From assembly GCA_963816345.1 (NCBI GenBank), contig CAWFKI010000005.1, forward strand, positions 2,399,572-2,463,571: a DNA stretch of 64,000 nt, in the 5' to 3' direction. The notes under the pieces are model-generated. The model was not told the DNA's origin. It searched no databases and saw nothing but the letters and a program-made list of their open reading frames with translations. Origin of the DNA: an uncultured Bacteroidales bacterium (GTDB lineage Bacteria; Bacteroidota; Bacteroidia; Bacteroidales; VadinHA17). Below, piece after piece: positions 3,136 through 36,079 of this stretch. Position numbers and translations under genes: made by a program. The first letter of the stretch is position 1. Each line of letters opens with the position of its first letter.

Positions 3136-3255
3136 TAACTGTTCCGGTGACACTTATAAAATAGTATCTTTACCAATCATTTTCGGGGATGTAGGGTGAA
3201 AAAAAATTGAGTATATTTTATTGTTAAGCATCATCAGGATCTAAAATTAATTTAT

Positions 3256-5650: not shown

Positions 5651-6418
5651 TCATTTATCTGCCATGGGTGCAATCTGCCCGGATGATATTACTCCTGAAG
5701 GTAACTCAATAATTCTTATATTCCTGAAATGTATCTCTCCTCCTTCCGATTCAAGACAGATGTAGCCTTTCCTCTGAGATGATGCTGAAATTCCGTTTAC
5801 AAATTTCCCATTCACCGATAGCTTAATCACGCCGTCGATGCAGACAACATCATATACATTCCACTCTCCTTTGCCCTTGCATCTGTTTTCAATTGATTTG
5901 CTTCTGGTGCCTCTGGGATTATCCGGGAGAGTCACCACACCTCCCACCCCAAAAAGTTCACCATGAACATATGCTTCAGGAGGTGTTACTCCATCTTTTT
6001 TATTCAGATTTATCCAGTCGAGCTCAAGCATCTGTACCTCCACTCCGTCAGGAAGACGGCTTTCTTCAGCCGGTCTTGCGGCACTCCATACGAAGGTTCC
6101 TGAATTGCCTCCCGATTCCATATGCATCCATTCAATGTGCAGAATGAAATTCTCATACTGTTTTTCTGACCTCATTACTCCGATAGGATGACCTGAACAG
6201 ACCAGTATATCCTTATCAACACGCCATGTGTCAGGCGAAGTGTTTACATTCTTCCAGAGTAAAGGCAGATCTTTCTCCCTGTTCATTGAGAGAGCTTTAT
6301 AAAGGCTCTCGGATTTTCCAAAAGAGATAATAGTTTCCTGCGCGAGGGATTCAATCCGGGAGGCTGTCAAGCATGACAGGCACAGCAGGATGATAATCAG
6401 AATCTTAAAATTTCTCAT
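5651..6418 (-). CDS. DUF1080 (3-keto-disaccharide hydrolase family) secreted protein
   Basis: Signal peptide. 'W..D..ILVCSG', '[10 protein letters not shown]' and the C-terminal '[13 protein letters not shown]' match the DUF1080 pattern. Confidence 0.8.
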
Positions 6419-6666: not shown

Positions 6667-9645
6667 TTACCTTTCGGTTTCACGAAGATAAAATAACCAT
6701 CCTTTTTTAGGTTCAACAGGAATAGATTCCCCGGATTTGAAAACTCTCTCTTCCTGGAAATCCTTAATGTAAGGGGCAACAAGGGCAGCTTTGGTGGAAT
6801 CCAGTCCGAGCGCTTTCCAGTCAAAATGAAGTGAGAACGTTGCCGTCTCCTCAGCCCAGCTTCCAACTGATATCAGAGATTCTCCATTTTTCTGATAGAC
6901 AGTTGCTTTAATATCAGTGCGATCAGTTTTTACAGGACAGTCCTTCTCCCAGTATCCTTTCATAATTGAAGATTCAATACCAAATTCATCCCAGATTTTC
7001 CAGACAGGTCTTGGATCGCACCTCACTCCTTCGGTCAACCAGGGATGACGCACAGTCATGCCATAAACCATCCCCAGCCACCTGTTTCCTCCTCCCTGGA
7101 GCATATCTCCCATCAATCCGAAAGGAATCCCTGATACTTCAACGAGCCAGTTTTCAGGTGGCATATTATCGTATTGAAAACTCTCTCCAAACCATAGTTT
7201 ATCAACAAATGGAAAATACTCGGCGTATTGGTTTGCCGGCCCCTTTGAAAAACCTGTATTGGAATGCAGGTCAATCAGGCAGCCGGCTTTTTCCCTGTCC
7301 AGAACCTTTCTGATCCGCTTTACAGTGCGTCTGTCATAAGTAACATCATCGAGGTAAAGACCGTCAATATCAACGTTTCTAACCAACCACGAAAGTCCTT
7401 CAATATAATAGTTATACCATCTTGAATCTCCAGGGGCACTAAGTATTGAAGCATCTGCACTTTTATCCTCGAAATGCTGATACCATTGAGGATTGTAGCC
7501 CTCAATCAGGTGTTCACGCAACCAGGGAAAGCCCCCGCACTTACCATTGCCAAGTATTTCATCACCAAGGCTGCGAAGTGCCCATATTTCAGTAGTATAA
7601 TTAGTAAGTTCGCGGATTGTGTAGTAGATTTTCACTTTTTGTCCCTTGCTGTGCATCCTGTTCACAAACCATTTCATTGAGTCCACCGCAATAAAAGGAT
7701 AATTGATATGAGGATTGTAATTGTTGGCATGATGAAGGTTTACTATTTTTACCCCGCAGGCGAGATCAGAATCCGGGGGCATCGGTTTCTCTCCGTTATG
7801 ATAATATCTGTCAGAAAACTGACTCTTATAATTTATCTTCTTAACCGGCGTAATGAGTAACGACCACTCAAATTCCACTTTTTCACCGCTTTTCATGTCA
7901 CGTTCGCCACTATAAACTACAGCTTTTACCTCTCTTGGATCCTTTTTAATACTGAAGCCTCCCCGGCCTTCATTATACCATGATGAAGGAAAGGCCGGAT
8001 GGTAAAGGTTCAGGAGAGGGCCATGATAGCTGCTTCCCCTTAATTCACACCAGATCCCGGCAGATGTATTTCCGATCCAGAAACTGTCATGGGGCCCTTT
8101 CCAGCCTGATTGATGTTCCTGAGGAACAATTGTCCCCGGCAAACCCATTCCTATCATATATTCAGCAATGCTTTCTGAAAATGGTAATTCAAGCCGGATA
8201 TCCTTTATATTCAGATCCCTCAGGGCTGTAAGCGATACTTTATAATTAATGTATCCATCCGACTCAATAATACCAACACCATTCAATAAAATATTCCCCG
8301 AATGGCTTTTCCAGGAACCGCTCATTGCTCCAGGTTCATTTTTCAGCAGGGCAACATCTTCAGGCAAAGAGAATTGTTCTGTTCCGTTCTTTGTTTCGAC
8401 AACAAATGAGAGAGGACGAGCCAAGATTTCTGTACCTGATACCTTAATTGATCCCGGCATTCCTCCCGGATCCATAGTCAGTTTTTTATCTGTAAGCCGG
8501 TAAACATTGTTTCCCATGAATTCAATTGCATCATAGGGCTTTGTTGGCTTATCGTCAATACCCAGAGTTGAGTTCAGCCAGCGAAGACGGGAATGTCTCC
8601 ATGGCTCGCTGTCGCCACGATCTGCAAGTATTTTTTTCAGAATCTTAAGATTGATCTCCAGGACCTGAGGATCAGCGTTTTCAGGCCTTATGATTATTCT
8701 TCCCGTGTAGTTACCGGCAGGAATATTTTCCGGTATATCAATACCGATCCAGAGTGGCTGAACAGCTCCCTTAAGTACATCAACCCTCTTTTCGAATGAC
8801 CTTCCGTAAGGTCCTGTCCCCCCCGTGTTGAAGCAGGTAAGTGCTGATGCCGGAATATTGTAACTGCTGTTTTCAAGAGATGAAAATTCAACTTTTACAT
8901 TCATCAATTCCTTCTTCGAGGCATATACTCCGATCTGAAATGCATAATATTCGTTCCGGAGGGCTTCCCCGCTGAACTTTCCCGATGGTCCTCTCTCAAC
9001 CCATTTCAGTGGTATTTCGTCTTTCATCCTTACAGGGAAAGTTCTATCCTCCGGAAAGATCAGGTAGTCACTTGTAAATTTCGTGAGTAAGCTCTTCTTT
9101 TCTGAAGAGAGAGGAATAATTTCCATGGGATAGAAAGAGTCAAAAGCTGTCCTGGATTGAAATCCGGTGAGTTTTGCCAAAGAAAAGGATTTGAGTTTCG
9201 ACATATCTCCAGCCTTATTCAAATTAACCCATTTTCCTGAAGGTGATTTTTCAGGTTTCAGATAGTCTTTCCCATAAAATCCCCAGTCCTTCTGAACCTC
9301 ATACGGCAGATAGTAGAAATAGTATGTCCCGGCCTTTTTAACTGGCCCGAAAGCCAGACGGCAACGCTCATTAGTTACAGAATAACGTAAAATGTTTTCA
9401 ATGGTATCACCTGTTGAAGCTTCAACAATTATGAACCGTTTCTTCTGAGGATCCTTATCATGTCTTCTCCAGAGGATATCAAGAATTGCAACCTGATTTG
9501 CCCTGGATATCTCAAGGACTGCCCTGTGGTTTCCGAAAGATTCAGGCCAGAGTATTTCAGGCACTGAATAGGACGAATACTTTGGTTTTTCACTTCGCCC
9601 GACAATTGTCAGAGACAAAAGGAGAACCGAAATTAATATTTTCAT
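6667..9645 (-). CDS. Large secreted uncharacterised GH-like protein (paralogue of 23164-25791)
   Basis: The long ORF starts at a GTG at 9675. The ATG at 9645 gives the signal peptide 'MKILISVLLLSLTIVG'. It shares long collinear motifs with the 875-aa protein ('WLNSTLG.DD', 'HHA', 'DG.Y.DD', 'EVSGIPFGL', 'GGGN.W.GMVYG', 'GYW...CPVKT'). The family name is not certain. Confidence 0.6.
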   Translation of the reverse strand: MKILISVLLLSLTIVGRSEKPKYSSYSVPEILWPESFGNHRAVLEISRANQVAILDILWRRHDKDPQKKRFIIVEASTGDTIENILRYSVTNERCRLAFGPVKKAGTYYFYYLPYEVQKDWGFYGKDYLKPEKSPSGKWVNLNKAGDMSKLKSFSLAKLTGFQSRTAFDSFYPMEIIPLSSEKKSLLTKFTSDYLIFPEDRTFPVRMKDEIPLKWVERGPSGKFSGEALRNEYYAFQIGVYASKKELMNVKVEFSSLENSSYNIPASALTCFNTGGTGPYGRSFEKRVDVLKGAVQPLWIGIDIPENIPAGNYTGRIIIRPENADPQVLEINLKILKKILADRGDSEPWRHSRLRWLNSTLGIDDKPTKPYDAIEFMGNNVYRLTDKKLTMDPGGMPGSIKVSGTEILARPLSFVVETKNGTEQFSLPEDVALLKNEPGAMSGSWKSHSGNILLNGVGIIESDGYINYKVSLTALRDLNIKDIRLELPFSESIAEYMIGMGLPGTIVPQEHQSGWKGPHDSFWIGNTSAGIWCELRGSSYHGPLLNLYHPAFPSSWYNEGRGGFSIKKDPREVKAVVYSGERDMKSGEKVEFEWSLLITPVKKINYKSQFSDRYYHNGEKPMPPDSDLACGVKIVNLHHANNYNPHINYPFIAVDSMKWFVNRMHSKGQKVKIYYTIRELTNYTTEIWALRSLGDEILGNGKCGGFPWLREHLIEGYNPQWYQHFEDKSADASILSAPGDSRWYNYYIEGLSWLVRNVDIDGLYLDDVTYDRRTVKRIRKVLDREKAGCLIDLHSNTGFSKGPANQYAEYFPFVDKLWFGESFQYDNMPPENWLVEVSGIPFGLMGDMLQGGGNRWLGMVYGMTVRHPWLTEGVRCDPRPVWKIWDEFGIESSIMKGYWEKDCPVKTDRTDIKATVYQKNGESLISVGSWAEETATFSLHFDWKALGLDSTKAALVAPYIKDFQEERVFKSGESIPVEPKKGWLFYLRETER

Positions 9646-9699
9646 ACTGTACTTTTTACTTAAATTAAATCGCACCTGGATTCTGAAGTAACATCGTAT

Positions 9700-12102
9700 T
9701 TATTTCAATGTACTATTTGAAAACTGCACCTGCCAATCAATTACTCCACCCTGACTTCCGAGACTAAGTTTAAGCATATTACCTGTTAACATATTTGTCA
9801 CTTTTATCTTCTGACCATCAGATGCTGAGGCTGTTGCCATTGTAACGATCATCCCGTCAGGAATATAGACAAAAATTGAATACGGATCTCCCTTTATAGT
9901 TTCTGACTTTCCGCTGAGAGTTTTTTCACTGTTGTCCCACTTCAGACCAACAATTGAATGTACACCTGAAATATGTCTTGAATTGCCTATCAGCTGCGGA
10001 TGCCCCAGCAGCGGATGAATCAGCAGAACACGGGTATCATGGGGTTCAATATCAATTTCCATCTTATCGCGGTAGACACCAAGAAGCTTTTGATTCCAGA
10101 AATCAAAAACAACAAACTGTGTTTCACCAGGCAAACCAAGTTTTTCTGAGAAGGAGACTGATTTTAAGATTTTTTCTCCCCTCCAGTTGGTAAAAGCTGC
10201 AACATCATACACACCTGATATAGCATTTACCTTAAGATCAATAATTTCAGGATAGTCATGGATATAGTTATCAGGTGTGGTAAACTTAAATTTATCCCAG
10301 GTAATATCCGATCCCCTGCTGAAGAGATCAACAGGGATAACAGGCAGGGTTGGCATTGTCTTCTTCAATAGAGTGACCCTGTCGTCAGGAAGTCCGGGCA
10401 TGATGCTGGTAAGAGGGTACACCACACCGGTAAGTGATATGACAGAAACGAGCGTACGTGCTTCTGCAGGAGTTACCCCGAAGCCGGTGAATGGATCTTC
10501 ACGGGTCAGAGCAACCTCTATTGCCCTCGGAGCCATCTTGCTCCTGGCTTCCTCTGCACTCATAAGCGGCGATACATCTATTCCCTCGCCCGGCATAACA
10601 TAAATAGCCATATGGTTAAGGAATGCGTTGGCGTTGATGGAGCTGAAGACTGCGTATGAGCCTTTCCAGCTGTTGTACATATCAGCCCCGTTAAAGCAGG
10701 AATTGAAATAGCCTATTCCGTTCAGCGGTGTGCCGGCCACACATCCCTCAATAAAGGTCTCCGGACCAATAACACTACGGATCAGGCTCAACCTGTCGCG
10801 GTAGGCGGTCAGAGGATCGATGGTCTTGTCATATAGCCTGCTTAAATCCAGATCCGGAACATACTCAGGAAGTGACAGTTCTCCGTCGAACTTGAAGTAC
10901 TCAAAGCCCCAGCCTTTAAGTGTTGTGAACAGTTTTTTAAGCCATTCCTGAACTCCGGGATTTGTATGATCCAGGGCTGGTGTCTTGTAATCCTTGATTA
11001 TTTTCCCTGATTTATCATATAGATACCAGTCAGGGTGCTGTTTTAAAAAGCCTGCATACGAGTTTGGCACTAACCATAATCCGGGATGCAAGCCTTTTGA
11101 CTTAATATATTTTGCAAGCCAGGCCGGCCCATGGGGGAATAGTGTTTTATTCCAGTTTTCAATCCAGTAATGGCCTTCGTCTTTACCACGGTCATAGCCA
11201 TCATCAATCTGAACATACTGAAATCCATAAGGCTTAAGGTTTTCTGAAAGCCAGTCGGTATTTGCTACAATATCAGATTCACGCGCTTCGTAATAGTAAG
11301 CTGTCCAGCTGCCCCAGATAACGGGTGCCGAAGGAAATACAGAGTCATCGAATTGCGAATAAACAGGAACACCAAGTGTTCTTGTGTAATAGTCAGGTGT
11401 AAGCCTGATAATTGACTTCCCGGGTACAGGAATCGTCATATCCAGCATATCCGGATCAATACTGTCCCGTTTCATCAGAGTCATTGCGGAAAAGGTGATC
11501 GCAATATCCCTCTTGCGGTCAAACAGGCTATGCAGGTTGGAGGCAGATACCTGTCCCAGTGCAAAGGTCATCACCTCAGGATTTTCCGGAGGAAGAAATG
11601 AGGGATGCTGAGTATCTTTTCCATTCCAGGAGACTGAAATCTCATTTGTTCCACGCCAGGTGACAGGTATACCTTCAGGATCAAGGATCCTGGAAACGAC
11701 CCGGCTGGCAGGAGCCGGCGCTTTGGCAGTTATAACCATGCCGGCAGATGTAGCTGAGATTATTATGTTATTTTGGTTCAACGCAAATGTCCATTCTGAA
11801 AAGGGATTGGATGTCCTGATTACAAGCAGGTTCTCACTACCCTTACCTGCGGTCCACTTATTCAGGGGAGTCAGCTCATTATTGTTTTTAATATTCAGTT
11901 TTATTTCCTGCAATACAATTCCGAGGCTGTCGTGCGACAGGTTGATTATACCCGTTCCCGGATCTGCAGTAATGGTCCATCCTGAAGAGGTTAATGTTAC
12001 AGGTTCAGCTTCAGTATTCTGACAAAAAGCCGGAATCTCTATTATACAAATAATTGCAAAACAGAGGGATAATCTGACTGATGAATAAAAAACCTTCTTC
12101 AT
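9700..12102 (-). CDS. Clan GH-D alpha-galactosidase-like glycoside hydrolase (GH27/GH36-related)
   Basis: Signal peptide. 'YVQIDDGYDRG', 'FEYFKFDG' and 'NGADMYNSW' resemble the melibiase-type IDDGW / K.D / R..D motifs. Confidence 0.6.
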   Translation of the reverse strand: MKKVFYSSVRLSLCFAIICIIEIPAFCQNTEAEPVTLTSSGWTITADPGTGIINLSHDSLGIVLQEIKLNIKNNNELTPLNKWTAGKGSENLLVIRTSNPFSEWTFALNQNNIIISATSAGMVITAKAPAPASRVVSRILDPEGIPVTWRGTNEISVSWNGKDTQHPSFLPPENPEVMTFALGQVSASNLHSLFDRKRDIAITFSAMTLMKRDSIDPDMLDMTIPVPGKSIIRLTPDYYTRTLGVPVYSQFDDSVFPSAPVIWGSWTAYYYEARESDIVANTDWLSENLKPYGFQYVQIDDGYDRGKDEGHYWIENWNKTLFPHGPAWLAKYIKSKGLHPGLWLVPNSYAGFLKQHPDWYLYDKSGKIIKDYKTPALDHTNPGVQEWLKKLFTTLKGWGFEYFKFDGELSLPEYVPDLDLSRLYDKTIDPLTAYRDRLSLIRSVIGPETFIEGCVAGTPLNGIGYFNSCFNGADMYNSWKGSYAVFSSINANAFLNHMAIYVMPGEGIDVSPLMSAEEARSKMAPRAIEVALTREDPFTGFGVTPAEARTLVSVISLTGVVYPLTSIMPGLPDDRVTLLKKTMPTLPVIPVDLFSRGSDITWDKFKFTTPDNYIHDYPEIIDLKVNAISGVYDVAAFTNWRGEKILKSVSFSEKLGLPGETQFVVFDFWNQKLLGVYRDKMEIDIEPHDTRVLLIHPLLGHPQLIGNSRHISGVHSIVGLKWDNSEKTLSGKSETIKGDPYSIFVYIPDGMIVTMATASASDGQKIKVTNMLTGNMLKLSLGSQGGVIDWQVQFSNSTLK

Positions 12103-12173: not shown

Positions 12174-13196
12174 TTACCTGAAATTTCTTGCGGTTTCGAT
12201 CAGAGTATGAATATTAACGGGAGGAGTTGTCGGAGGAATAGCACATCCGGCATTTAATATGAAACGATGAGAATTCCGGTAGATATCCAGCAGCTCCAGT
12301 GTTTTTTTCCTTACTTCATCCGGCGTTCCCAGGGCAAGGACCCCGCTGGGGTCAATGATACCTATAAGCGTAGTTTTGTCATGAAAAGCATCATAGATTT
12401 TCCTGATGTCTGTCTTATAGTCAAGTTCTATAGCATCAGCGCCGGTAGTGAGCATTTGTTCAAGAATGACATCCGTGTTTCCGCATATGTGCAGTGCATA
12501 CTTTACTCCTTCTTTATGCGCAACTTCAACCAGCCTTTTCTCAAAAGGCAATGCATATTTTACATACATGTCGGAGGAGATCATTTCAGGTCCTGCAGGG
12601 CTATCGCCGTTTGAGACCATATGGCAGCCTGTCTGAGTCATAAGCCTGATAAACTGTGAGCCTGCATCAAGACAATATTCCAGAAGAAAGTTTATCTGTT
12701 CGTCAGTCCCCATCATAAGGTCCAGCATCCATGTCTGGGCGCCCCGCATCATGCTGGCAAGGGAAAAGGGAGCCTGGTCGCAGTTTCCCCTGATAAATAT
12801 CTCATTTTTATAATAATCCATTAAGATGCGGACTGCCTCCAGCCAGATCTGAATGTACCTGTAGTTCTCAACCTTAACAGGTTTAAGATGATATACATCC
12901 TCCAGATTCTTAATGTTGCCCAGATGTGATCTTGCCGGGTCATCAGCTGGAAAATCGACCCGCACACCAACTGCTCCTGCAAGGGTAACAGTATCAATAT
13001 CAACGAGTATACCATCATATTTATACCTGTCAACAGCTGCAATAAAGCATTCCGCGATCAGCTTCGGATCATTCCGGTACTGATCCATTGTGATTTTATA
13101 TTCCCGGGCGGCAAGCATAAAGTTATGTAGCATCACAGGAACTTTATCAGGTTTTTCACCATTCAATGCGGCTGTAATTCGTTCGTATCCGTTCAT
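12174..13196 (-). CDS. Uroporphyrinogen decarboxylase (URO-D)/MtaA-like family protein, zinc-motif type
   Basis: 340 aa with N-terminal 'ERITAALNGEKPDKVPVM' typical of PF01208-type proteins. 'LHICGN' plus 'NAGCAIPP' form an H-x-C...C motif. It lacks the HemE 'MRQAGR' motif. Confidence 0.75.
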   Translation of the reverse strand: MNGYERITAALNGEKPDKVPVMLHNFMLAAREYKITMDQYRNDPKLIAECFIAAVDRYKYDGILVDIDTVTLAGAVGVRVDFPADDPARSHLGNIKNLEDVYHLKPVKVENYRYIQIWLEAVRILMDYYKNEIFIRGNCDQAPFSLASMMRGAQTWMLDLMMGTDEQINFLLEYCLDAGSQFIRLMTQTGCHMVSNGDSPAGPEMISSDMYVKYALPFEKRLVEVAHKEGVKYALHICGNTDVILEQMLTTGADAIELDYKTDIRKIYDAFHDKTTLIGIIDPSGVLALGTPDEVRKKTLELLDIYRNSHRFILNAGCAIPPTTPPVNIHTLIETARNFR

Positions 13197-13217
13197 ATTG
13201 AATTTATTGTTTATAGT

Positions 13218-14326
13218 TCAATTCCGGTATTTTCCATATTCGTTTACCAATTCTGAAACCCGTTTTACCCTTCTCTCCAGAGCGTCAGGCGGGACCTGGT
13301 CGGCAACACCAAGAACAAAGCGGGGTCTCCGGATCATAATTGAGAGAAGGTATTTTACATGCCTGTCAAATTCCTCATCATCAACACAACCTGTAAAATA
13401 AGAGCCGGGTATTCCACCCCAGAGTATGCTGTCAGAGTTCCCTGAAAGGGTTTCAATATCTTCAAACCTGACATCACCTACCGGATAAGGCGTCAGCGCT
13501 TCCAGTACCGTAAATCCTACGCCTGCCTCATGCTCCAGTAATCCCTGTAATGTTCCGTCGATATGGATAAATGAGTATTTTCCGGCATCTCTTATCCTGG
13601 TTGTCCATTCCTTCTGATAATCGTACATATATAATTTAAACAGATCAGGGCCAACCATTTCTGAGGAGAGATTCTCAGGAATCATAAGAACCTCTGCCGG
13701 ACTGTCGACAGCGATCCGGGCTGCCTTGTCAAATGCCGTTTTCATAGTATTCAGAAGATCCCTGAACTCATCTGACATTGTCAGTGCCGCCATCGTTACA
13801 GCCTCAATACCCGCCTCCAGAGCCATGAGATGCATAAAGGGGCTTTTAGGCAGATAACACAAAACAACTCCCTGGTCGCCGACCTGTTCTCTCCGGAGGT
13901 CTGGCAATATCATAATCAGGTTCAAAATGAGTGTTTTCATAGATGATATTTCATAACCGGTATGTCATTTCCTGATTTAAGGAAATGTTCCACAGGACCT
14001 TCTGAAAACGATGTCGGGATATATTCCCAGCATTCCCTCACCCGGCCTGCCGGAGTGATGATTTCCTTATAATGCCTGTGGCCTTCATGCCACTCATTTA
14101 CCTTGCAACCCGAGATAATCTGTTTGTACGGGAAGTATCCCTGCAGATAAAATCCGACACCAAGCCTGCGATGCCAGTTGATATAATCTTCAGAGAGAAT
14201 AAAACCCTCTGGCTTGAGACCTCTTTTGATGAGTGAGTTTGCCCAATAATCAAGATCTCCGAACCATGGAACCTGATCCGGTTGTTTTCCGGAAAGTATT
14301 GTCAGTAGTCTTTCCCGATGGGTCAT
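13218..14326 (-). pseudogene. URO-D/MtaA-like family gene split into a 129-aa N-terminal and a 240-aa C-terminal ORF (frameshifted, or naturally two-part)
   Basis: The N-piece ('MTHRERLLTILSGKQPDQVPW') and the C-piece together equal one URO-D-like protein. The junction is an ATGA overlap at 13937-13940, and the two pieces are in different frames. A third frame reads 'YENTHFEPDYDIA' across the junction, so two nearby indels are also possible. Confidence 0.6.
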
Positions 14327-14406
14327 TTACTTGTATAATTTGATGCTATTTATTAATTTACTTGTTAAATACAAAGGACACAATGGTTTAGCAAGGTCAC
14401 AAAGTA

Positions 14407-15759
14407 TTAATAAAGAACCTCTTTTTCAATCTGTTCGAGTGTTTTGCCTTTTGTTTCAATAATATTGTTCTTAAGATAGAAGAAGCCTATAAGTGTTACA
14501 CATGCGAGAAAGATGAATGCAAAGCTCATTCCCTTCTGCTGTTGTGCCAGTGTTATTCCGAACAGACCTACCACCTGGGGGAAGAGGAAGTTGAGAGAAG
14601 CGCTCACTCCCCAGTTGGCAAATGATCCGAGGGAAGCACCACGTGCCCTGATTATATTAGGAAACATTTCAGATAATAATACCCAGATGACAACTCCCAT
14701 TGATGCAGCAAAAAAAGCTATGTAGGCGACGAGCAGGAATACAAGCCAGTAACCTCTTATATTTCCGGAGAGCAGACCGTATCCGAACAATGCTAAAACT
14801 GTCACCATTCCCAGCTGACCTGTCAGCAACAGGTTCTTTCGTCCCACTTTGTCGATCACGGCCATTGCGAGCAGCGTAAAGACCAGGTTTGTCAGTCCGA
14901 GTATTACACTCTGAAGCATTGATGTGTCCGGTGAAAAACCTGCTATGCTGAATATCTGGGCTGAATAGTAAAACACAACTCCGATCCCTGTAAGCTGACT
15001 GAATATCCCAACAAATATCCCGATGAAGACAATCCTGCGGTAGGGTCTCTTAAACAGATTTATTCTCTTTGCAGCATTCTCGATATTGATTGATTCCTTT
15101 ATCTCAGTTATTGTTTGTTCGGTATCGATTTCATGCGAAGAGAGATCTTCAATATTCTTTCTGGCTTCTTCTATCCTCCCCTTTTTCACAAGCCAGCGGG
15201 GGCTTTTCCTTATAAAGAAAAGCATAAGGAAAAATACAACAGCAGGAATGGCACCACTGAAAAGCATCCATCGCCAGTTATTTTCACCTGTATTCAGAAG
15301 AAGATAGTTTGATATCAGCGACAATAAAATCCCGGTTACGATGGCAAGTTGAAATGTGGAAGCCAGCAACCCCCTGTGCTTTGGCGGAGATATTTCAGAG
15401 ATATACACAGGACAAAGCACTGAGGCACCGCCAATTGCCAGTCCTCCTATAAACCTGAAAAGAATAAATACATCGATTGTCGGCGCCAGGCCGCATCCGG
15501 CAGCAGAAATGAAAAACAATACCGCAAGAAGCTGTAACAGCCTCTGAGAGCCAAATATATCTCCCGGCTTTCCAATAAGAATGGTTCCGGCGATGCAACC
15601 CACAAGCGCCGAACTCACCGTCCAGCCCTGGATTGCAGGGGTCAGGTTGAAATGCCTTACCAGATCGAGCATTGCACCGTTTATTATGACGGTATCGTAG
15701 CCGAATAACAACCCGCCAAGGGCTGAAGCTATTGTACACTTGATGAGGACTCTGTTCAT
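14407..15759 (-). CDS. MFS sugar porter family transporter
   Basis: 450 aa with 'GGLLFGYDTVIINGA', 'PESPRWL' and 'ETKGKTLEQIE', which are sugar_tr signatures. Multiple TM segments. Confidence 0.9.
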   Translation of the reverse strand: MNRVLIKCTIASALGGLLFGYDTVIINGAMLDLVRHFNLTPAIQGWTVSSALVGCIAGTILIGKPGDIFGSQRLLQLLAVLFFISAAGCGLAPTIDVFILFRFIGGLAIGGASVLCPVYISEISPPKHRGLLASTFQLAIVTGILLSLISNYLLLNTGENNWRWMLFSGAIPAVVFFLMLFFIRKSPRWLVKKGRIEEARKNIEDLSSHEIDTEQTITEIKESINIENAAKRINLFKRPYRRIVFIGIFVGIFSQLTGIGVVFYYSAQIFSIAGFSPDTSMLQSVILGLTNLVFTLLAMAVIDKVGRKNLLLTGQLGMVTVLALFGYGLLSGNIRGYWLVFLLVAYIAFFAASMGVVIWVLLSEMFPNIIRARGASLGSFANWGVSASLNFLFPQVVGLFGITLAQQQKGMSFAFIFLACVTLIGFFYLKNNIIETKGKTLEQIEKEVLY

Positions 15760-15963: not shown

Positions 15964-17225
15964 CTAACCGAGCATTTTATCAATTCTACTCATCATCTCC
16001 ATCATTGCTCTCCCGTTGTGATAGGGACATTTCCAGGGGTCAATTTTCCAGTCGTTCCGGTAATAAGGTGAAGGGTCATCTTCCGGCTCAACAAGAAAAG
16101 GAACTCCCAGGCGGTTCAGCTTGGTAAACCATTCACCCCTCTCATGGTCGATCAGGAAGGAATCAATAAAATTCCATGTCAGCTTAACAGTATTCCAGTA
16201 TTTTACATCGCCTGTCAGCTCAAAAGCATTCATGAATCCAACAAGGGTCTCGGCCTGTTGCCACCAGTGTTTGTTGGTTTTCAGATGGCTCCCGAAACGG
16301 GTTGACTCCAGAAAGAGACCGCCATCCTTATCAACTGCCACCCGTTCAATATTATCGACCATTTTAATTACCAGGGGGCGCATCCTTTCAATTATCCCGG
16401 CGTTCCCAAGTATCTCCGCTGCTTCCCACAGTAACCATGAACCTTCAATATCATGACCAAATGAGCATATGCCTTTTGAGGAATCAGCTTCCCGGAAATT
16501 TTCACCGAAGAAGATGCCAAAATGACCTTCCTTACGGATTATTCTGTCAAGGAACAAATTCATCATTTCCGTAAGTCTTCTCTCAACCAGGGGATCCTTC
16601 CAGACCTTATAAAGTGCAGCCCATGCCTCAAGAACATGCAGGTGGGTATTCATCGATTTAGGTTCATTGTTATCGGCCATCCTGTTTTCGCCATAAATTT
16701 TCCAGTCGCGCGTGAAAGACTCCAGGTAGCCTTCATTGACCGGATCCTTAGCCTTCTTCTCAAGGAGTAAGAAAAATCCTTTAATCTTCTGCATCACCTG
16801 AATCAAGAGGACGAAACTCATAATATTTACATAGAGAATAAATGACAAAGGCCTGAGCGTATGTATGCTTTATATCATTGGCTACCTTATTGTCAGCTGT
16901 CAGCTCCATGTAGTAGCCTCCGTATTCCTTATCTTCGAAATCTTCCGTTATTACCCTGTAAGCTCTGTCTGCGATAGCTGCATAAGCTTCGTTACCCTCA
17001 GGTCATTGCTGCAGCAGAAAATGTCCATAAGATCCTGGCATTCAGAACGCTTGTTTTATTTGCGGTAAGCACCGGGTTTCCATTGAGATCGACAGCACCC
17101 TGGAATCCATGGCCGTTTTTTTCAATTCCGTATTTCATCCAGTAGGAAAGAATATCACCGTGAAGTTCTTTATGGAATTTGTCACGATACAACCTTAATT
17201 CTTTTTCTGTTTCTGTCGTTATCAT
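15964..17225 (-). pseudogene. N-acylglucosamine 2-epimerase (AGE) superfamily gene (cellobiose/mannobiose 2-epimerase or mannose isomerase-like) with two frameshifts
   Basis: The N-piece ends '...NARILWTFSAAAMT*'. A third frame continues 'PEGNEAYAAIADRAY...DKEYGGYYMELTADNKVANDIKHTYAQAFVIYSLCKYYEF', then the 294-aa ORF resumes with 'KGFFLLLEKKAKDPVNEGYLE'. The shifts are near 17000 and 16800-16830. Confidence 0.8.
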
Positions 17226-17298: not shown

Positions 17299-19981
17299 TC
17301 ATTTGACAAATAACTTGATCGTTTCTATTGAATTATGACCTACTCTGAGGCCAAGAGTGTTTCCGCTTCCCGGGATCACCTTACCCTCCTCTTCAATCAT
17401 GTTGGTCAGCTCAGCCTTCCCGAATGGAGCCGAAACAGATATACCGGCATCACTGTCAGTACCTTCAATATCATAACATCTTACAATCACATTGTCATCA
17501 TCTTCGCATTTTTTAATTGTGCTCAGGATCAGGTTTTTATTCGCGACAGATATGAAGCTCATTGTTTCAGGCATTTTTCCAACAGCTGACGATGGCTTTG
17601 AAACCACGACCTTCAGTGGCTGATTTGACTGGGTTCCGTATCTGTATCCGCTTTTCCAGTCACCTTTGTATGAATAGAAAGAAAAGGTATAGGTGTGATC
17701 CCCCGGCTGCAGGTAGTAATTACCTTCGCTATGACAGCTCTTGCGGCTTGCAAGCAAAACAGGCTGAAGAATAGAATAACCGGCAGGATCTGAAGTAGGA
17801 TCAATCCAGTCAAAAACAGCTACATCCGAGCTTATTGTTATGCCGTTTTTTCCGTCGGAGGCCGAGAACCAGTCCTGAACTTCCCGGGGATGAACCTGGG
17901 AACATGGAGTACTATAGATCTGTGAAGCTTTTGAGAAGCCTGCCGCGCCTGCTATTTCATCCTTCCCTACCCTTACAACTCCCATCGGGACTTCATAGGC
18001 AATCTCAGATTTTGCCTGATCTACCGGAAAGGCAAGCCGGAATTCCCGGTATTGTTCTCCGTCAAATCCATTAAGATCAATATGCACATCTATCCGTTTG
18101 ATTGTTTTGTAGAAAATCAGTTGCTGAACAACTGTAACATGGCTGATCTCTTTCCGGAATTCATAAACATCTCTTACAGGGCCTGATGAAACGAGTGTCC
18201 ATGGCTGATTGTACCGGCTCATCTTTTCAAAACCATCCATTGTCGGCTGCTGGACATCAGTAAATTCCCCGGCGCCGTTACCAACAGACTGCATGGTGAA
18301 CAACTCGGCTCCAAGGAACTTGTCGGTTTTGAGAAGATTTACTGACAACTCTTTATCATACAACGATTTAATTCCTCCATCGGCAAATCCGACTTTATAA
18401 TAATTGTTTTCATAACTGTTGCTGCTGTTTTTAAAACCGGATGAAAAAGCAGCCGGCTTTCCTTTCTCGAGGTAGTATGTTTTATAGCCTATTGAAGGCA
18501 CTTTTTCAGCCACGAACAGAAATGTGAGAACTTCGTCCTTGTTACCCGATATATCATGTTCATCAATAAGCTGATACGGAATTTCATTATCATTTTCGTC
18601 GACCAGCCTGAAAATATCCTGATCATTGCCTTCAACATTCAGGGTAAATTTCACAACATCAGTACGCTCCCAGGAGAGAGTATTAAAAACTGTTACAGGT
18701 ATACCCTTATCGGAGAACTGTATTCTGGATGCGATACTGGTCAGTGATTTTTCAAGTATTCCGGATGCTATAGACCGTGCCTTTTCAAAAGCTGTGCGAA
18801 AAGCTCTGTCAGTCAGTGAACCATACTTGCCGCCCCATCCATGATCAGGATATATGGCATTCTCCCAGGCAGTTGTAAAAGATGCCTGCGGATAATCCTT
18901 AAATGATCCCGGACTGAAGGGCATCGAAGGTTGCAAATTTTTCCGCGGCTGTCAGGAGTCTCGATCCTTCTCTCGATGCCTTCAGAGCTTTCTGATGTGA
19001 AGGGCCATGTATATAAAGCCAGACATCGGGCCTCTCTCCCTGAATTTTATCAAATGAAGGATCACCTTTGGTAACTGCTTCAAACCATTCAGTAGCCGTA
19101 GAATAATTAATTAATGGTTTACCGCGTCTGACAGATTTTGAATTCCAGTCATTGAAGAAAGCGTCGTAATCGGGAGGAGTTGCAAAATCTGTTGAATAGA
19201 GAAACTGTAATTCAGGCTTTATGTTTCTTATTTTGAAATAGTTACTCCACTCTGACGACATTGCTGTAAAGGCCTTCGTGAGAGAATTAATGTCTGTCTT
19301 TGCTGCCCTGACAGGTATTCCGACTTCATCATATTGCCCGGGAGTAAAACATGTAATGTAGCTGCCATCGGGACTGTACCATCTGTAGATACCTGGCTGA
19401 TGCCGGCTGAACTGCATGTATGGTATGCCGGATTTTGAGAGTATCTGTGCCATTTGTAAGGATCTGCCGGGGACATCTTCATTCCAGTATGTCTTGAAAT
19501 CGCAGCCGGGAAGTGTTTTTTTCAGCCATTTCCGTCCCAGGTAAGCCTGTCTTATAAGAGACTCCCCGTCGTACATTGATTCATAAGGCTGTTTATAAGT
19601 AGCGCCCCATTCAAGACGACCTTCACGGGTATATTCAAGGATCTCGCTATATGAGTCAGGGTGTCTCTGAAGATATTCCCGCAGGCTCAGCCCGTCTTCA
19701 ACAGAGAATTTGAAATCACTATTGGCTTTAAGGCGTTCCAGTACCGGGGTAATCATCTTCTGATCACGGAACTCTATACATTTGCCGATGCTGTCCATCC
19801 ATGCTATATCCTGATGAGAAGATGGGACAACAAATATTTCTCCTCCCCTGAAATAGGAAAAGTCTCCTTTGCCAGCTTTCCCCGGGGAAGATTGCGATTG
19901 GCTTAAAGCCTGAAATTCAGGCCTGATAATAAAAACAACTGAGAGAATAATCAGTCTGCAAGTCGTTACTGCTTTCATCAT
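17299..19981 (-). pseudogene. GH38 alpha-mannosidase-like gene with one frameshift
   Basis: N-terminal 'VVPSSHQDIAWMDS', 'REGRLEWGATYKQPYESMYDGESLIRQ' and 'NEDVPGRSLQMAQIL' are GH38 N-domain motifs. The 379-aa and 545-aa ORFs overlap in different frames, and the join '...DALQSG/SFKDYPQ' sits at a CCGGG run near 18907-18913. The likely start is the ATG pair at 19981/19978 (signal peptide 'MMKAVTTCRLIILSVVFII'). Confidence 0.8.
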
Positions 19982-20009
19982 ATATAATTTTGATTTTAAA
20001 GGTAGAATG

Positions 20010-20029
20010 CCTGCCTGCCGGCAGACAGG
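20010..20029. repeat. Imperfect copy of the CCTGCCTGCCGGCAGGCAGG palindrome (core only)
   Basis: 'cctgcctgccggcagacagg' has one mismatch to the perfect palindrome at 21790-21809. It lies about 30 nt upstream of the GH38 start, in a divergent intergenic region. Confidence 0.8.
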
Positions 20030-20242
20030 GAACCACACATGATTGTAAATTATATTTTTTCATATTTGTGATTGTTGTCAATCATGTGGGTTTCATCTGT
20101 TCAGATTTAAAAATTCCTGATTAAAATACGGACAAAAACCAAATATACAAGTTTACAAATGCTCTAAATGGGTTAACCTGAGAATAAGAGATTTAAAATG
20201 CAGTTTATATATTACTTTATATTCTGGTATCTGTTTTTCAGA

Positions 20243-29228: not shown

Positions 29229-29256
29229 CCAAAACCTTATATAATAGTTTGCAAAT

Positions 29257-32415: not shown

Positions 32416-33420
32416 ATGACCCGGAGGGAAGTTATAAAAAAAGTGCTGGACGGTAAAAAACCGCCCTACACGCCATGGTCGTTCAAATTTACGGTGGAGG
32501 CTAAAAGGCTGCTGCAGAATTATTACAATACGGAAGATCTTGATAACAACCTCTTTAATCATGTGCTGATGCTTGGGGCCGACATCGGCTTTTTTGACCG
32601 GATAGGAGATAATCTCTTCCGCGATGTTTTTGGCGCAGTATGGGACAGAAGTATTGATAAGGATATCGGCAATATAACAGGAAGCATAATAAGTGAACCT
32701 TCGCTTAAGAACTATACCTTCCCCGATCCCCTTGACAAGAGGATCTTCGTTGATATCGCGCCTTCAATCAAAGCCCATCCTGATATGTTCCGTCTTTTTG
32801 AGATCGGCTTTTCACTTTATGAGCGTGCATGGACCCTGAGGGGAATGGAGAACCTGTTAATGGATTTTATGGTTAATCCTGGTTTTGTGCATGAACTGAT
32901 GACAGCTATTGCAGATTATAATATTTCCCAGCTGAGAGAGGCTGCGAAATATGATATCGATGCGGTTGCCTTCGGAGATGACTGGGGACAGCAAAGCGGT
33001 CTTATCATGGGTTACGCTACATGGAAGGAGTTCATATATCCTCAGCTGAAGCGTATGTATAAAGCCGTGCATGATGAAGGCAAGTACGTATTTATCCATT
33101 CATGCGGAGATGTCGACGAACTATTTGATGATCTGATAGATATAGGATTGAATTGTTTTAATCCATTCCAGCCGGAGGTAATGGATGTACTGGCATTAAT
33201 GAAAAAGTACCGCGGCAGGCTTACATTCCACGGAGGGTTATCAATTCAAAAGACGCTCCCGTACGGGACCATGGAAGAAGTGAAGGCTGAATCTGAAATG
33301 CTTCTAAGGGCAGGTTCTGAAGGGTCATACATCTTCTCACCTTCCCATGCTGTAGAGGGTGACACATCGCTTGAAAATATGCTCATTTTCATAAATGCGG
33401 CGCAATCCCAGTTAAAATAA
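32416..33420 (+). CDS. URO-D/MtaA-like family protein (H-x-C ... H variant)
   Basis: 334 aa with N-terminal '[18 protein letters not shown]', then 'IHSCGD' and 'SPSHAVEG'. No HemE 'MRQAGR' motif. Confidence 0.75.
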
Positions 33421-33433: not shown

Positions 33434-34837
33434 ATGACTGATAATAAAAACATCAATACCGGATATGTGGTGTTCCTCGCTCTTGTATCCGCAATGGGCG
33501 GACTGCTGTTCGGATACGACTGGGTAGTTATCGGGGGAGCCAAACCCTTCTATGAACGGTACTTTGATATCGCATCATCTGCTACATACCAGGGTTTTGC
33601 AATGAGCAGCGCACTTTTTGGCTGTATTATCGGATCAGCCGTTTCAGGCAGTATAACCGATAAATACGGAAGGAAGATTCCCCTGCTCTTTTCTGCCTTC
33701 CTCTTTATTATTACCTCCATCGGAACAGGCGCCTTTAATTCGTTTGCTTCCTTTATGATCTTCCGGATTATGGGAGGTATCGGCATAGGAATTGCTTCCA
33801 ATGTTTCGCCTGTTTACATTGCTGAAATATCTCCTGCGCACATGAGAGGCAAGCTTGTCTCGATAAACCAGTTTACAATCGCTTTTGGTGTTCTGGCAGC
33901 GCAGCTTACAAATATGATTATTGCTGAACCTGTTGCTGTCGGAGCAACTGATGAGCTGATTCGCAATTCATGGAACGGACAGATGGGATGGAGATGGATG
34001 TTCTGGGCATGCAGTGTTCCCGCTACCCTCTTTTTTATACTAATGTGGCTTGTTCCTGAAAGCCCCAGATGGCTGACCAAGGCAGGCAGGAAAGATAAGG
34101 CGATGAGGGTTTTTGAAAGGATCGGTGGAAAAGAATATGCCATAACAGAAACCGATGATATAAGCCTCTCATTATCAATGTCTGAAAAACAGGGTACAAA
34201 AGAGAAATTCAGCAATCTCTTTACAGGACAGCTGGCACCTATAATCACCCTTGGTGTAATCCTTGCAGTGTTTCAGCAATGGTGTGGAATAAACGTGATT
34301 TTCAATTACGCGGAAGAGATATTTTCAGCAGCCGGTTATGGAATCTCAGGTACTCTCTTTAATATTGTCCTCACCGGAACCGTAAGCCTCATATTCACAA
34401 TTCTTGCAATGTTTATTGTCGACAGGTATGGCCGGAAGATCCTTATGCTGACCGGTGCCGGAGGACTGGCAATAGTCTATGTAGTTATTGCCACTGGTTA
34501 TTACCTGCATTTCAGCGGTATTTTTATGGTATTCTGGGTCGTTACTGCAATAAGTATTTACGGTCTTACCCTGGCGCCGATTACCTGGGTTCTGCTTTCA
34601 GAGATATTCCCGAATAAAATACGCGGCCATGCCATGTCTGTTGCTACTTTTGCGCTCTGGACATCATGTGCCATACTTACATTATCCTTTCCATTCCTTA
34701 ACAGGGGCCTGGGGACATCGGGTACATTCGGCGTTTATGCCGCAATCTGTTTCATGGGATTCTTTTACATACTCAAAAAGCTGCCGGAAACAAAGGGTAA
34801 ATCGCTTGAACAGATTGAGAGGGAACTTACATCATGA
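33434..34837 (+). CDS. MFS sugar porter family transporter
   Basis: 467 aa with 'GGLLFGYDWVVIGGA', 'PESPRWL' and 'PETKGKSLEQIE'. Confidence 0.9.
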   Translation: MTDNKNINTGYVVFLALVSAMGGLLFGYDWVVIGGAKPFYERYFDIASSATYQGFAMSSALFGCIIGSAVSGSITDKYGRKIPLLFSAFLFIITSIGTGAFNSFASFMIFRIMGGIGIGIASNVSPVYIAEISPAHMRGKLVSINQFTIAFGVLAAQLTNMIIAEPVAVGATDELIRNSWNGQMGWRWMFWACSVPATLFFILMWLVPESPRWLTKAGRKDKAMRVFERIGGKEYAITETDDISLSLSMSEKQGTKEKFSNLFTGQLAPIITLGVILAVFQQWCGINVIFNYAEEIFSAAGYGISGTLFNIVLTGTVSLIFTILAMFIVDRYGRKILMLTGAGGLAIVYVVIATGYYLHFSGIFMVFWVVTAISIYGLTLAPITWVLLSEIFPNKIRGHAMSVATFALWTSCAILTLSFPFLNRGLGTSGTFGVYAAICFMGFFYILKKLPETKGKSLEQIERELTS

Positions 34838-34894: not shown

Positions 34895-36079
34895 ATGAAT
34901 TCAAAAGAAAGGATGATTGCGGCAATGAGCCATGAGACTCCTGACAGGGTACCGGTTATGTGCCAGCTATCGCTTGGTCATTATTTTTTGAACTGCAAAT
35001 ACAAGCCATCGGAAATCTGGTTTGATTCCGATACATTTGCCAGGGCGCTGACAGACCTCCAAAAGGAATATAACTTTGATGGCATCCTGGTAAATCTGCC
35101 CGGAAGACCTCACGATTGGGAAAAATACCTGGCATCCAGGGAGAAAGCAGACGGTTCTGAAATACTTGTGTGGAAGGATGGTTATGAGACACATGTCCCT
35201 CCTGATGATAACGCCCATACGTTTCTTCCGGGTAAAGTTCCTCTTCCCCGCGCCACATTTGAATTTACTGATCTGAAAAACCCCGCTGAATTTATAACAC
35301 GCGGCTATATCTGGAACACCTATCATATGCCCGGATTATGGGGTTTTGATAGTGATGCCGATTTAACTGATCCTGCTTCATATCCGGCATCGTTCACAAA
35401 CGCTGTGAAAGCAGTTAAGAAATATGCCGGCGATATTTCAATTCATGCAGAGGTCTTTTCCCCTTTTACCCATTTACTTGAACTGTTCGGTTATGAAGAA
35501 GCTTTGATGGGAATGATGGTCTATCCCGATCTCTGCCGGGAGCTGCTTGCGTATTTTACAAGGATTGCCCTGGCAGAAGTAAACGTCTATGCCAGGGAAG
35601 GAGGCATCGATGCAATACTGGTAAGTTCAGCATTTGCCGGTGCAGGTTTTATAAGCCGGAATGATTACAGGCAGTTTGTAATGCCTTTTGAAGAACCTGT
35701 CTACAAAGAGATCAGGCGGTTCGGCCTGTTCAGCTATGTGCATACCTGCGGTTCCATTGGCGACCGTCTCGACCTGATGGCTGAAATGTCAGTCGATGGC
35801 ATTGATACCCTAGATCCCCCGCCCCTCGGAACTGTTCATCTTGAAGAAGCAAAGGAAAAATTCGGAAAGAGATTCTTTCTGAAAGGAAACCTCGACTCGA
35901 TAAATGAATTACTCAATGCTGACGATAAAACCTTTGAAGAAGCAGTGACGGGGAGAATCAGGACAGGAAAGCCTGGCAGCGGCTATATTCTGTCCACTGC
36001 CTGCAGCGTATCTCCATACGTTAAACCCGAAAGGCTGAAACGACTCGCTGAGCTTTCGGTCATGTATGGCAAATATTGA
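34895..36079 (+). CDS. URO-D/MtaA-like family protein, zinc-motif type
   Basis: 394 aa with N-terminal 'ERMIAAMSHETPDRVPVM'. 'VHTCGS' plus 'STACSVSP' form an H-x-C...C motif. Confidence 0.75.
   Translation: MNSKERMIAAMSHETPDRVPVMCQLSLGHYFLNCKYKPSEIWFDSDTFARALTDLQKEYNFDGILVNLPGRPHDWEKYLASREKADGSEILVWKDGYETHVPPDDNAHTFLPGKVPLPRATFEFTDLKNPAEFITRGYIWNTYHMPGLWGFDSDADLTDPASYPASFTNAVKAVKKYAGDISIHAEVFSPFTHLLELFGYEEALMGMMVYPDLCRELLAYFTRIALAEVNVYAREGGIDAILVSSAFAGAGFISRNDYRQFVMPFEEPVYKEIRRFGLFSYVHTCGSIGDRLDLMAEMSVDGIDTLDPPPLGTVHLEEAKEKFGKRFFLKGNLDSINELLNADDKTFEEAVTGRIRTGKPGSGYILSTACSVSPYVKPERLKRLAELSVMYGKY

Follow-up and report, generated by a model that had tools for sequence, protein, structure and literature searches.

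Why do genes of the uroporphyrinogen decarboxylase (URO-D) superfamily lie beside a sugar importer, among genes for glycan breakdown? The question is raised by a 64 kb stretch of DNA from an uncultured Bacteroidales bacterium (64,000 nucleotides, contig CAWFKI010000005.1; hereafter the window), in which two such genes, which we call URO-D-1 and URO-D-2, follow a porter of the major facilitator superfamily (MFS). An earlier note, made from the letters alone, had drawn attention to the arrangement. In related genomes both genes recur next to porters and, in some operons, next to a corrinoid protein (CP). That URO-D-1 and URO-D-2 work with a CP is, in our view, quite probable. We lean, by no great measure, towards the more specific proposal that they demethylate imported O-methyl sugars in the cytoplasm, as metal- and corrinoid-dependent methyltransferase I (MT I) enzymes. 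The three genes at the centre of the argument are the following.

14407..15759, minus strand: sugar-porter-family MFS importer, 450 aa (Pfam Sugar_tr 5.6e-104, full length)
13218..14326, minus strand: URO-D-2, 368 aa when intact, a very divergent URO-D fold
12174..13196, minus strand: URO-D-1, 340 aa, an MtaA-like URO-D fold with a putative zinc site (Pfam URO-D 3.2e-65)

Family and putative metal site of URO-D-1

URO-D-1 matches the Pfam family PF01208 from end to end (220.9 bits, gathering cutoff 23.9) and has 3627 matches in the protein database. Profile searches, which the earlier note had advised, place it in the URO-D superfamily with a higher score for MtaA/CmuA (NCBIfam TIGR01463, 159.5 bits, cutoff 235.4) than for the hemE equivalog (TIGR01464, 96.6 bits, cutoff 302.95); the methylcobalamin:coenzyme M methyltransferase model PRK06252 gives 151.6 bits (cutoff 244). 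Because all these scores fall far below their cutoffs, URO-D-1, as judged from its sequence, forms a subfamily of its own on the side of MtaA.

The closest solved structure is MtaA of Methanosarcina mazei (PDB 4ay7; phmmer 4.4e-16, profile 6.9e-20), to which URO-D-1 is about 21% identical. LHICGN of URO-D-1 aligns with LHICGN of MtaA and GCAIPP with GCGIAP, bearing out the MtaA-type His-x-Cys...Cys motif that had been recognized in the 340-aa protein at the outset. The AlphaFold2 model (pLDDT 85) has MtaA as its top Foldseek match (TM 0.83), followed by HemE structures (TM about 0.8). The putative zinc ligands, H236, C238, D259 and C318, are retained in 92 of 101 aligned sequences, namely URO-D-1 and 100 full-length representatives of 50%-identity clusters, 25-53% identical to it. 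Their spacing, H-x-C-x20-D-x58-C, presumably resembles that of the MetE zinc site. MtaA, as MT2-A, has the zinc ligand set of MetE (PMC539065).

Divergence of URO-D-2 and its broken reading frame

The earlier note had described URO-D-2 as split. A broken frame is indeed present, but it involves three frames and not two (residues 1-127, 128-141 and 142-368), and it is most likely an artefact of assembly. DNA alignment places two 1-nt insertions near 13945 and 13904, both absent from four orthologues, and a Logan short-read contig (run ERR11594405) with a 100%-identical URO-D-1 carries the adjoining URO-D gene intact, at 368 aa. Since the gene is intact in this independent contig, and since two genes of the same operon, for an AGE-superfamily epimerase and a glycoside hydrolase (GH) of family GH38, are likewise broken by single bases (two breaks and one, respectively), the breaks in all three are most likely long-read assembly errors. 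We accordingly rejected the idea that URO-D-2 is a pseudogene. The relative L002/L007 has other genes fragmented in the same way. The pattern as a whole has the look of indel errors in long reads, not of decaying genes.

URO-D-2 was analysed as the reconstructed 368-aa protein, of which the C-terminal 200 residues alone match Pfam URO-D. In the window this match falls in the C-terminal part of the gene, open reading frame (ORF) 13940-13218 (1.5e-10, 41.1 bits, gathering cutoff 23.9), and ORF 14326-13937 by itself has no Pfam match. The fragment reaches 23.7 bits with MtaA/CmuA, a model that the intact orthologue P0142 does not match, and the hemE equivalog does not match URO-D-2. The family is nonetheless large, with 1669 proteins found and top matches 76-86% identical. 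H254, D256, D342 and Q343 are invariant in it; hhalign sets the first three at the positions of the His-x-Cys and Cys motifs of URO-D-1, so that URO-D-2 has no His-x-Cys...Cys zinc motif. The URO-D-2 profile is near-blind against PDB sequences (MtaA E 0.029) and fold comparison was used in its place: the AlphaFold2 model (pLDDT 81) has a URO-D barrel (TM about 0.6 to MtaA/UroD) with an inserted five-strand beta subdomain. Structure prediction, another suggestion of the earlier note, thus returns URO-D folds for both proteins. All the motifs quoted there are found in the translations: PDKVPVMLHNFML and PDQVPWFGDLDYW at the two N-termini, LHICGN and NAGCAIPP in URO-D-1, IHIDGT and GVADQVPP in URO-D-2. 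Neither protein has a signal peptide.

Conservation of the link with a sugar porter

A scan of one genome per GTDB species gave 477 loci encoding a URO-D-1 relative, of which the best 80 (63-86% identical; ORFs called, then clustered) were used for neighbourhood counts; individual loci bear the prefix L. The 80 stem from Bacteroidales, Prolixibacteraceae, Mariniphaga, Draconibacterium, Lentimicrobiaceae, Paludibacter, Ignavibacteria and Melioribacteraceae. Cultured relatives with the locus are known from Mariniphaga, Draconibacterium, Prolixibacter and Paludibacter. Sugar porters are the commonest neighbour family (53/80 loci), followed by AGE (47/80) and GH38 (44/80). Among the 73 loci whose upstream flank of URO-D-1 is 1.6 kb or longer, the gene directly upstream is a porter in 26, URO-D-2 in 15 (always with a porter before it), AGE in 12 and GH38 in 3; a porter thus directly precedes URO-D-1 or the URO-D-2/URO-D-1 pair in 41 of the 73. 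An independent set, JGI metagenome contigs anchored on URO-D-2 (302 relatives), has a porter directly adjoining URO-D-2 in 30 of the 38 loci flanked on both sides. These metagenome porters form two clades, one 80-90% identical to the window porter and located upstream, the other 35-37% identical and located downstream. The porter/URO-D arrangement is far beyond chance and recurs in dozens of species, so the neighbourhood that the earlier note had proposed to check across genomes is conserved.

The same note had regarded the two URO-D genes as a pair wired to the importer. The linkage to the importer holds, but the pairing is not obligate. Of 41 loci with full flanks, 25 have no URO-D gene other than URO-D-1 within 8-10 kb, and in 19 of these a porter lies just upstream. 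URO-D-2 is likewise seen beside a porter in the absence of URO-D-1 (L086, L087 and numerous metagenome loci). A URO-D-1 orthologue is directly downstream of URO-D-2 in 21 of 56 loci only, and some loci have three URO-D paralogues (L085, L090). In our proposal URO-D-1 and URO-D-2 would be parallel specificities, not an obligate pair.

Corrinoid genes in related loci

A 222-aa CP (PF02310 and PF02607, with GDLHDIGKN as its Asp-x-His-x-x-Gly motif), grouped by NCBIfam with the methyltransferase-cognate MtgC, MtbC and MtaC, is encoded in 8 of the 80 URO-D-1 loci, and a MetH-type activation domain (PF02965) in 5 of the 80. The CP gene directly adjoins URO-D-1 in L016, L030, L064 and L073, and URO-D genes also adjoin it in L110 and L157.

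The arrangements differ. L064, L073 and L110, of the Lentimicrobiaceae type, read S-methyl_trans (homocysteine S-methyltransferase family), AGE, porter, URO-D-2, URO-D-1, CP, MetH-type activation domain and GH35; all are on one strand, so that the corrinoid genes lie between sugar genes. L014, L030 and L016 have porter, URO-D-1, (AraC), CP, Pterin_bind, MTHFR, activation domain and another URO-D; the Pterin_bind protein of the L014/L030 type passes the cutoff for methyl-tetrahydrofolate:corrinoid methyltransferase (273 vs 259 bits). In L157 and L158, with gaps of at most 22 nt, the order is GH2, GH38, MFS, URO-D, CP, URO-D, a 136-aa ORF, a CobW::Met_synt_B12 fusion and a URO-D-2 orthologue (65% identical). 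L046 combines an SSF symporter, GH130, a URO-D paralogue, CP, S-methyl_trans and activation domain; L072 has MFS_2 and, further on, a URO-D paralogue, CP and MtaB; and in L018 CobW, MtaB and CP lie a few genes away from AGE, GH38 and URO-D-1. By content, L064 and L110 hold two URO-D genes, CP, S-methyl_trans and the activation domain, L014 and L030 hold URO-D, CP, Pterin_bind, MTHFR and the activation domain, and L157 three URO-D genes, CP and CobW::Met_synt_B12. CPs being rare genes, we do not find it plausible that their recurrent adjacency in several unrelated arrangements is due to chance, which is our own judgement and not a computed statistic.

Two Bacteroidales loci, L088 and L089, have a cassette of CP, Pterin_bind, MTHFR and Met_synt_B12 without a substrate-specific methyltransferase. 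L088 shares the ENA assembly record ERZ21878447 with L003, where AGE, porter, URO-D-1 and GH38 have no corrinoid gene near. This fits a hub-and-spoke layout, the shared record being no proof of a common genome. The four-gene cassette lies at L014:12170-15174, L030:3197-6996, L088:10001-13712 and L089:10001-13697, and its MTHFR has an N-terminal DUF5981. In L089 it adjoins genes for a CE15 glucuronoyl esterase and a GH115 protein. CE15 and GH115 families act on xylan carrying 4-O-methyl-glucuronate.

MtaB homologues (Pfam 1.5e-160) beside CPs and near URO-D/GH38 occur at L018:852-2228 (minus strand) and L072:19312-20079 (plus strand), the hosts of L018 and L072 being metagenome-assembled genomes of Prolixibacteraceae and Melioribacteraceae. 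Such MtaB-CP genes suggest that organisms other than acetogens and methanogens also use methyl groups from methanol. CobW-family metallochaperone GTPases accompany corrinoid genes at L157:8397-9980, L054:10616-12225 and L018:1-851; the L157 protein, a 527-aa fusion of CobW with a MetH-type activation domain, may be an unusual reactivation or metal-insertion factor.

Composition of the operon in the window

ORF calling shows every long ORF between 5651 and 20038 on the minus strand, with short gaps, in the order GH38, AGE, MFS porter, URO-D-2, URO-D-1, melibiase-like GH, GH123_N and 3-keto-disaccharide-hydrolase-like gene. The ORFs on which the earlier note had based its gene order and coordinates are all present as described, and Pfam supports their families. 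Beside the three genes given above, the run comprises:

17299..20038, minus strand: GH38 alpha-mannosidase (Pfam Glyco_hydro_38N, 38C, 38C2)
15964..17225, minus strand: AGE-superfamily epimerase, nearest to cellobiose 2-epimerase, cytoplasmic, with two frameshifts (Pfam GlcNAc_2-epim)
9700..12102, minus strand: melibiase-like (alpha-galactosidase-like) GH, with a signal-peptide-like N-terminus (Pfam Melibiase 6.3e-11 and Melibiase_C)
6667..9675, minus strand: GH123_N-family GH, 1002 aa (Pfam PF19543, 1261 bits)
5651..6418, minus strand: 3-keto-disaccharide-hydrolase-like protein (DUF1080), last gene of the same-strand run (Pfam PF06439 5.7e-28)

One frameshift breaks GH38 into ORFs 20038-18899 and 18936-17299, onto which the intact 893-aa orthologue of L001 maps in two frames, as residues 1-358 and 358-893, at 94% identity (tblastn); its N-terminus, read by eye, is signal-peptide-like. 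The window AGE is found by tblastn as three pieces in different frames. Its intact L001 orthologue matches NCBIfam EpiA (1.8e-87, below cutoff) and has cellobiose 2-epimerase PDB 3wkf as its closest solved structure (2.4e-83). The porter passes the sugar porter model TIGR00879 (350.3 bits vs a cutoff of 237.8), its best equivalog matches, XylE and GlcP, being under cutoff, and the assignment is at family level only. The melibiase-like gene is syntenic in L001, L005-L007, L068, L085 and L090, the GH123_N gene across many related loci, and the DUF1080 gene in L001, L005-L009, L086 and L087. A sigma-70 promoter and terminator scan gave intragenic matches only; it is ill-suited to Bacteroidota promoters and its result was not used.

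A proposed route for O-methylated sugars

Orthologues of both URO-D genes share single-strand operons with a CP, a MetH-type activation domain and an acceptor methyltransferase, which is strong indirect support for the role that the earlier note had named first, O-demethylation of imported methyl sugars, here as a corrinoid-dependent reaction. In the route that we envisage, secreted exo-glycosidases (GH38, the melibiase-like GH and GH123_N) would release monosaccharides, some of them O-methylated, and because these glycosidases have signal-peptide-like N-termini the release would take place outside the cytoplasm. The MFS protein, a sugar porter by family, would import the released sugars. Each URO-D enzyme would then bind one kind of methyl sugar, the metal polarizing the ether oxygen and stabilizing the sugar alkoxide as it leaves, and the methyl group passing to Co(I) of the roughly 220-aa CP, an MT I role that reverses the chemistry of MtaA/MtsA. 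The methyl-Co(III) protein may be unloaded to tetrahydrofolate, by the Pterin_bind methyltransferase and then MTHFR, or to homocysteine, by S-methyl_trans, and oxidized Co(II) would be rescued by the protein with the MetH-type activation domain; genes for unloading and repair are seen in related loci and in the source genome would have to be located elsewhere than in the window. The cellobiose-2-epimerase-like AGE would then convert the sugar that is set free, which is probably mannose. By way of speculation, candidate substrates include the O-methyl-mannoses found in glycans of algae, molluscs and mycobacteria, as well as further methylated sugars. Whether the locus stands for a widespread B12-dependent O-demethylation of sugars in anaerobic Bacteroidota and Ignavibacteriota, with diversified URO-D methyltransferases beside importers and a shared CP, we regard as evenly balanced.

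Several observations weigh against this proposal. As the earlier note had remarked, the window has no corrinoid protein: tblastn over its 64 kb gave no corrinoid, activation-domain, Pterin_bind or MTHFR match. A profile search of 5.8 billion proteins returned at least 8000 near-equal corrinoid matches, and none of the best 120 comes from the 3,183,188-bp contig of the window. Corrinoid genes occur within 10 kb in about 10% of related loci. URO-D-1 reaches the curated cutoff of no named NCBIfam subfamily, and no NCBIfam model matches URO-D-2 significantly over its full length. Nearest to URO-D-1 in sequence is MtaA, a methyltransferase II (MT II), and not CdmB, an MT I of the aryl O-demethylase type (75 vs 32 bits), and a His/Cys/Cys zinc site is classically thiol-activating and binds thiolates. 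An aliphatic sugar ether, with its poor leaving group, is a chemically hard substrate, and we know of no enzyme of the URO-D family shown to demethylate one. The substrate that we suggest is drawn wholly from the neighbouring genes.

Alternative explanations

Within the same sugar-linked corrinoid system the roles might be divided otherwise, URO-D-1 acting as the MT II that unloads the methylated CP to tetrahydrofolate or a thiol, with URO-D-2 or the paralogues as MT I. Such a division would suit the nearness of URO-D-1 to MtaA in sequence and fold and its zinc site of the thiol-alkylation type (PMC539065); bacterial MtaA/MtqA homologues are established MT II enzymes (PMC13222342), and the order URO-D-2, URO-D-1, CP and activator in L064 and L073 is readable as a classical set of MT I, MT II, CP and activating enzyme. 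We nevertheless consider it rather unlikely, and favour MT I for both proteins, because each stands alone beside a porter (URO-D-1 as the sole URO-D in 19 of the 41 full-flank loci), whereas a generic MT II would be expected by the CP and not by an importer. MT I is also favoured because fuller loci that include URO-D-1 already hold dedicated MT II candidates, Pterin_bind (L014, L030) and S-methyl_trans (L064), and because a third URO-D type, that of L030, recurs inside the core of CP and activator (L030, L157) and is a better candidate for MT II. One may also dispense with corrinoids and see in the URO-D proteins metalloenzymes that act on the imported sugar as isomerase, epimerase, decarboxylase or MetE-like alkyl transferase, their CP neighbours being coincidental. 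About 90% of related loci, and the window, are without a corrinoid gene within 10 kb, the superfamily includes the cofactor-free HemE and the corrinoid-free MetE, and the ligand sets of the paralogues vary (H/C/C, H/C/H, H/D/D, H/D/H), all of which this explanation accommodates. It has more difficulty with the same-strand adjacency of CP and activation domain in at least four arrangements or lineages (L064, L014/L030, L157/L158 and L046/L072 types), which for such rare proteins we estimate, again not as a computed statistic, to be far above chance, and with the stand-alone cassette of CP, MT II, MTHFR and activator, which lacks MT I and calls for MT I genes elsewhere. We judge it unlikely.

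The system might also be corrinoid-dependent with a methyl donor other than an O-methyl hexose, such as an O-methyl-inositol (pinitol), a methylthio-sugar or another small methylated compound: a His/Cys/Cys zinc site suits sulfur ligands, as in MtsA-type methylthiol enzymes (compare the SCMT clade, PMC10418091), and the porter is assigned to family only. The persistent GH38, the cellobiose/mannose-type 2-epimerase and the other exo-glycosidases point instead to glycan-derived aldoses, and make this improbable. Public annotation, JGI names for instance, labels the proteins 'uroporphyrinogen decarboxylase', which together with the Pfam URO-D match would make them HemE enzymes of haem or corrin biosynthesis. 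HemE has an N-terminal Arg-rich carboxylate-binding motif (...RQAGR...). This substrate-binding motif is absent from the N-termini of both URO-D-1 and URO-D-2, the MtaA-type metal motif is present, the hemE score of URO-D-1 is less than a third of the cutoff and URO-D-2 has no match, no tetrapyrrole gene is found among the annotated ORFs of the window, and its four URO-D paralogues are all in sugar loci. HemE identity, already denied in the earlier note, is rejected on score, motif and context and may be taken as refuted for practical purposes, with next to no probability left to it.

A second URO-D/porter module and other genes of the window

The earlier note had listed the URO-D genes at 12174 to 14326, with their porter, as module 1. 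The window has a second URO-D/porter module on the plus strand (28506-36079), with genes for a D-lyxose/mannose-type isomerase, a PfkB kinase, a mannitol-dehydrogenase-family protein, DUF998, URO-D-3, Sugar_tr and URO-D-4, which brings the total to four URO-D paralogues and four sugar porters.

28506-29228, plus strand: D-lyxose/mannose-type isomerase
32416..33420, plus strand: URO-D-3, 334 aa, His/Cys/His at the ligand positions (Pfam URO-D 8.9e-23; IHSCGD, SPSHAVEG)
33434..34837, plus strand: second sugar-porter MFS, 467 aa (Pfam Sugar_tr 5.1e-105)
34895..36079, plus strand: URO-D-4, 394 aa, His/Cys/Cys at the ligand positions (Pfam URO-D 7e-30; VHTCGS, STACSVSP)

URO-D-3 is directly upstream of the second porter, which has a URO-D paralogue on either side and is 36% identical to the porter of the first module. 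In an alignment of the URO-D paralogues of the window with those of L014, L030, L046, L072 and L085 the first His is invariant, and the second and third ligands are Cys/Cys, Cys/His, Asp/Asp or Asp/His. This variation is consistent with a metal site that is kept and tuned to different substrates. The PfkB and mannitol-dehydrogenase ORFs (29257-31633) overlap by 167 nt, which is maybe another frame break.

At the left end of the window (827-4152, plus strand) lie genes for a four-carbon-acid sugar kinase (SBD_N/NBD_C), a PdxA-family dehydrogenase and an aldo-keto reductase. In L001 and L002 the trio, which we take to resemble threonate/erythronate-type catabolic modules, keeps its synteny with the URO-D locus. 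GH123_N/GH123 genes at 6667-9675, 23164-25791 and 44812-46527 encode two large GH123_N-family paralogues and one protein with a GH123 catalytic domain, and further genes belong to GH29, GH20, GH92, GH109-like, GH116, GH28 and GH172/DUF2961. No SusC/SusD pair occurs among the annotated ORFs, so that in this region, dense in genes for glycan breakdown, transport falls to MFS porters and the layout is not that of a classical polysaccharide utilization locus.

Significance and comparison with known systems

Glycans of algae, plants, fungi, invertebrates and bacteria contain O-methylated sugars, whose methyl groups stand in the way of ordinary sugar catabolism. The only described sugar demethylase is an oxygen-dependent P450, and anaerobic sugar demethylation has been termed an undiscovered mechanism in a 2025 paper (PMC12316285). 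The present locus family offers concrete candidates, with two enzyme families (3627 and 1669 matches), CP, methyl acceptors and activator together in some operons. If our proposal is correct, they would do without oxygen what the P450 sugar demethylases do with it, and would bring sugar ethers within the range of corrinoid methyl-ether cleavage; methanol (MtaB) is the non-aromatic C-O substrate known so far. They would also imply that Bacteroidota need B12 when they break down glycans in sediments, peat, digesters and perhaps guts, would lead methyl groups of glycans into C1 metabolism and methionine, and would correct the mis-annotation as uroporphyrinogen decarboxylase. The earlier note knew of no described pathway with a URO-D pair and a sugar importer, and we likewise found no description in the literature that ties URO-D-family or corrinoid genes to sugar transporters, glycan loci or sugar demethylation, nor one of a URO-D/porter system in the literature on MtaB or O-demethylases in Bacteroidota.

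HemE shares the superfamily and the TIM-barrel fold (TM about 0.8); it has no metal site, and the proteins described here differ from it in N-terminal motif, score and gene context. The closest likeness is to MtaA/MtbA/MtsA of methanogens, in fold (TM 0.83), as best sequence relative of URO-D-1, in the aligned His-x-Cys...Cys motif with an acidic residue between the motifs at MetE-like spacing, and in a probable CP partner of the MtaC/MtbC/MtgC type. Nevertheless, URO-D-1 remains about 21% identical and below all curated cutoffs, the genes lie in glycan-degradation operons beside an importer, the hosts are Bacteroidota and Ignavibacteriota, not known makers of coenzyme M, and the proposed direction is demethylation of an O-methyl ether and not methylation of a thiol.

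With the four-component anaerobic aryl O-demethylases and the chloromethane system of acetogens and Desulfitobacterium (OdmA-D, VdmB, MtvABC, CdmBCA) the loci would share the logic of URO-D MT I, CP, MT II and activator. In those systems many MT I paralogues feed few corrinoid/MT II sets, zinc is present in some MT I enzymes and absent from others, and the URO-D superfamily provides both MT I (CdmB, MtvB, OdmB, VdmB, MtoB, CmuA) and MT II (MtqA, CdmA, bacterial MtaA) (PMC13222342). Genes for all parts of the four-component type lie together in the L064 and L157 operons. The known systems take phenyl methyl ethers or halomethanes as substrates, compounds with good leaving groups, whereas aliphatic sugar ethers are proposed here. 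In sequence URO-D-1 is much nearer to MtaA than to CdmB. Activation would fall to a MetH-type domain, in some loci joined to CobW, in place of a RACE/RamA ATPase. The hosts are not acetogens, and tetrahydrofolate/MTHFR or homocysteine would serve as methyl sinks. The type 1 mlp clusters of non-methanogens (Kountz and Balskus, PMC10418091) similarly combine several MtaA-like URO-D proteins with one CP. These clusters were delimited by an identity of over 25% with coenzyme M methyltransferases and associated with the metabolism of methyl-sulfur compounds or methyl-selenide (PMC10418091). They are without sugar transporter or GH context and use a different activase, of the RACE kind.

The job that we propose, removal of a catabolism-blocking O-methyl group from glycan monosaccharides, is done in aerobic marine bacteria by the P450 CYP236A, which demethylates 6-O-methyl-D-galactose from porphyran (PMC6292453, PMC12316285) and is likewise encoded in polysaccharide utilization loci. 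It belongs to an unrelated family, uses O2 and yields formaldehyde, whereas the system proposed here would be independent of O2 and keep the methyl group as methyl-tetrahydrofolate or methionine. The corrinoid logic of methyl transfer is known, and what would be new is the class of substrate and the genomic and taxonomic setting.

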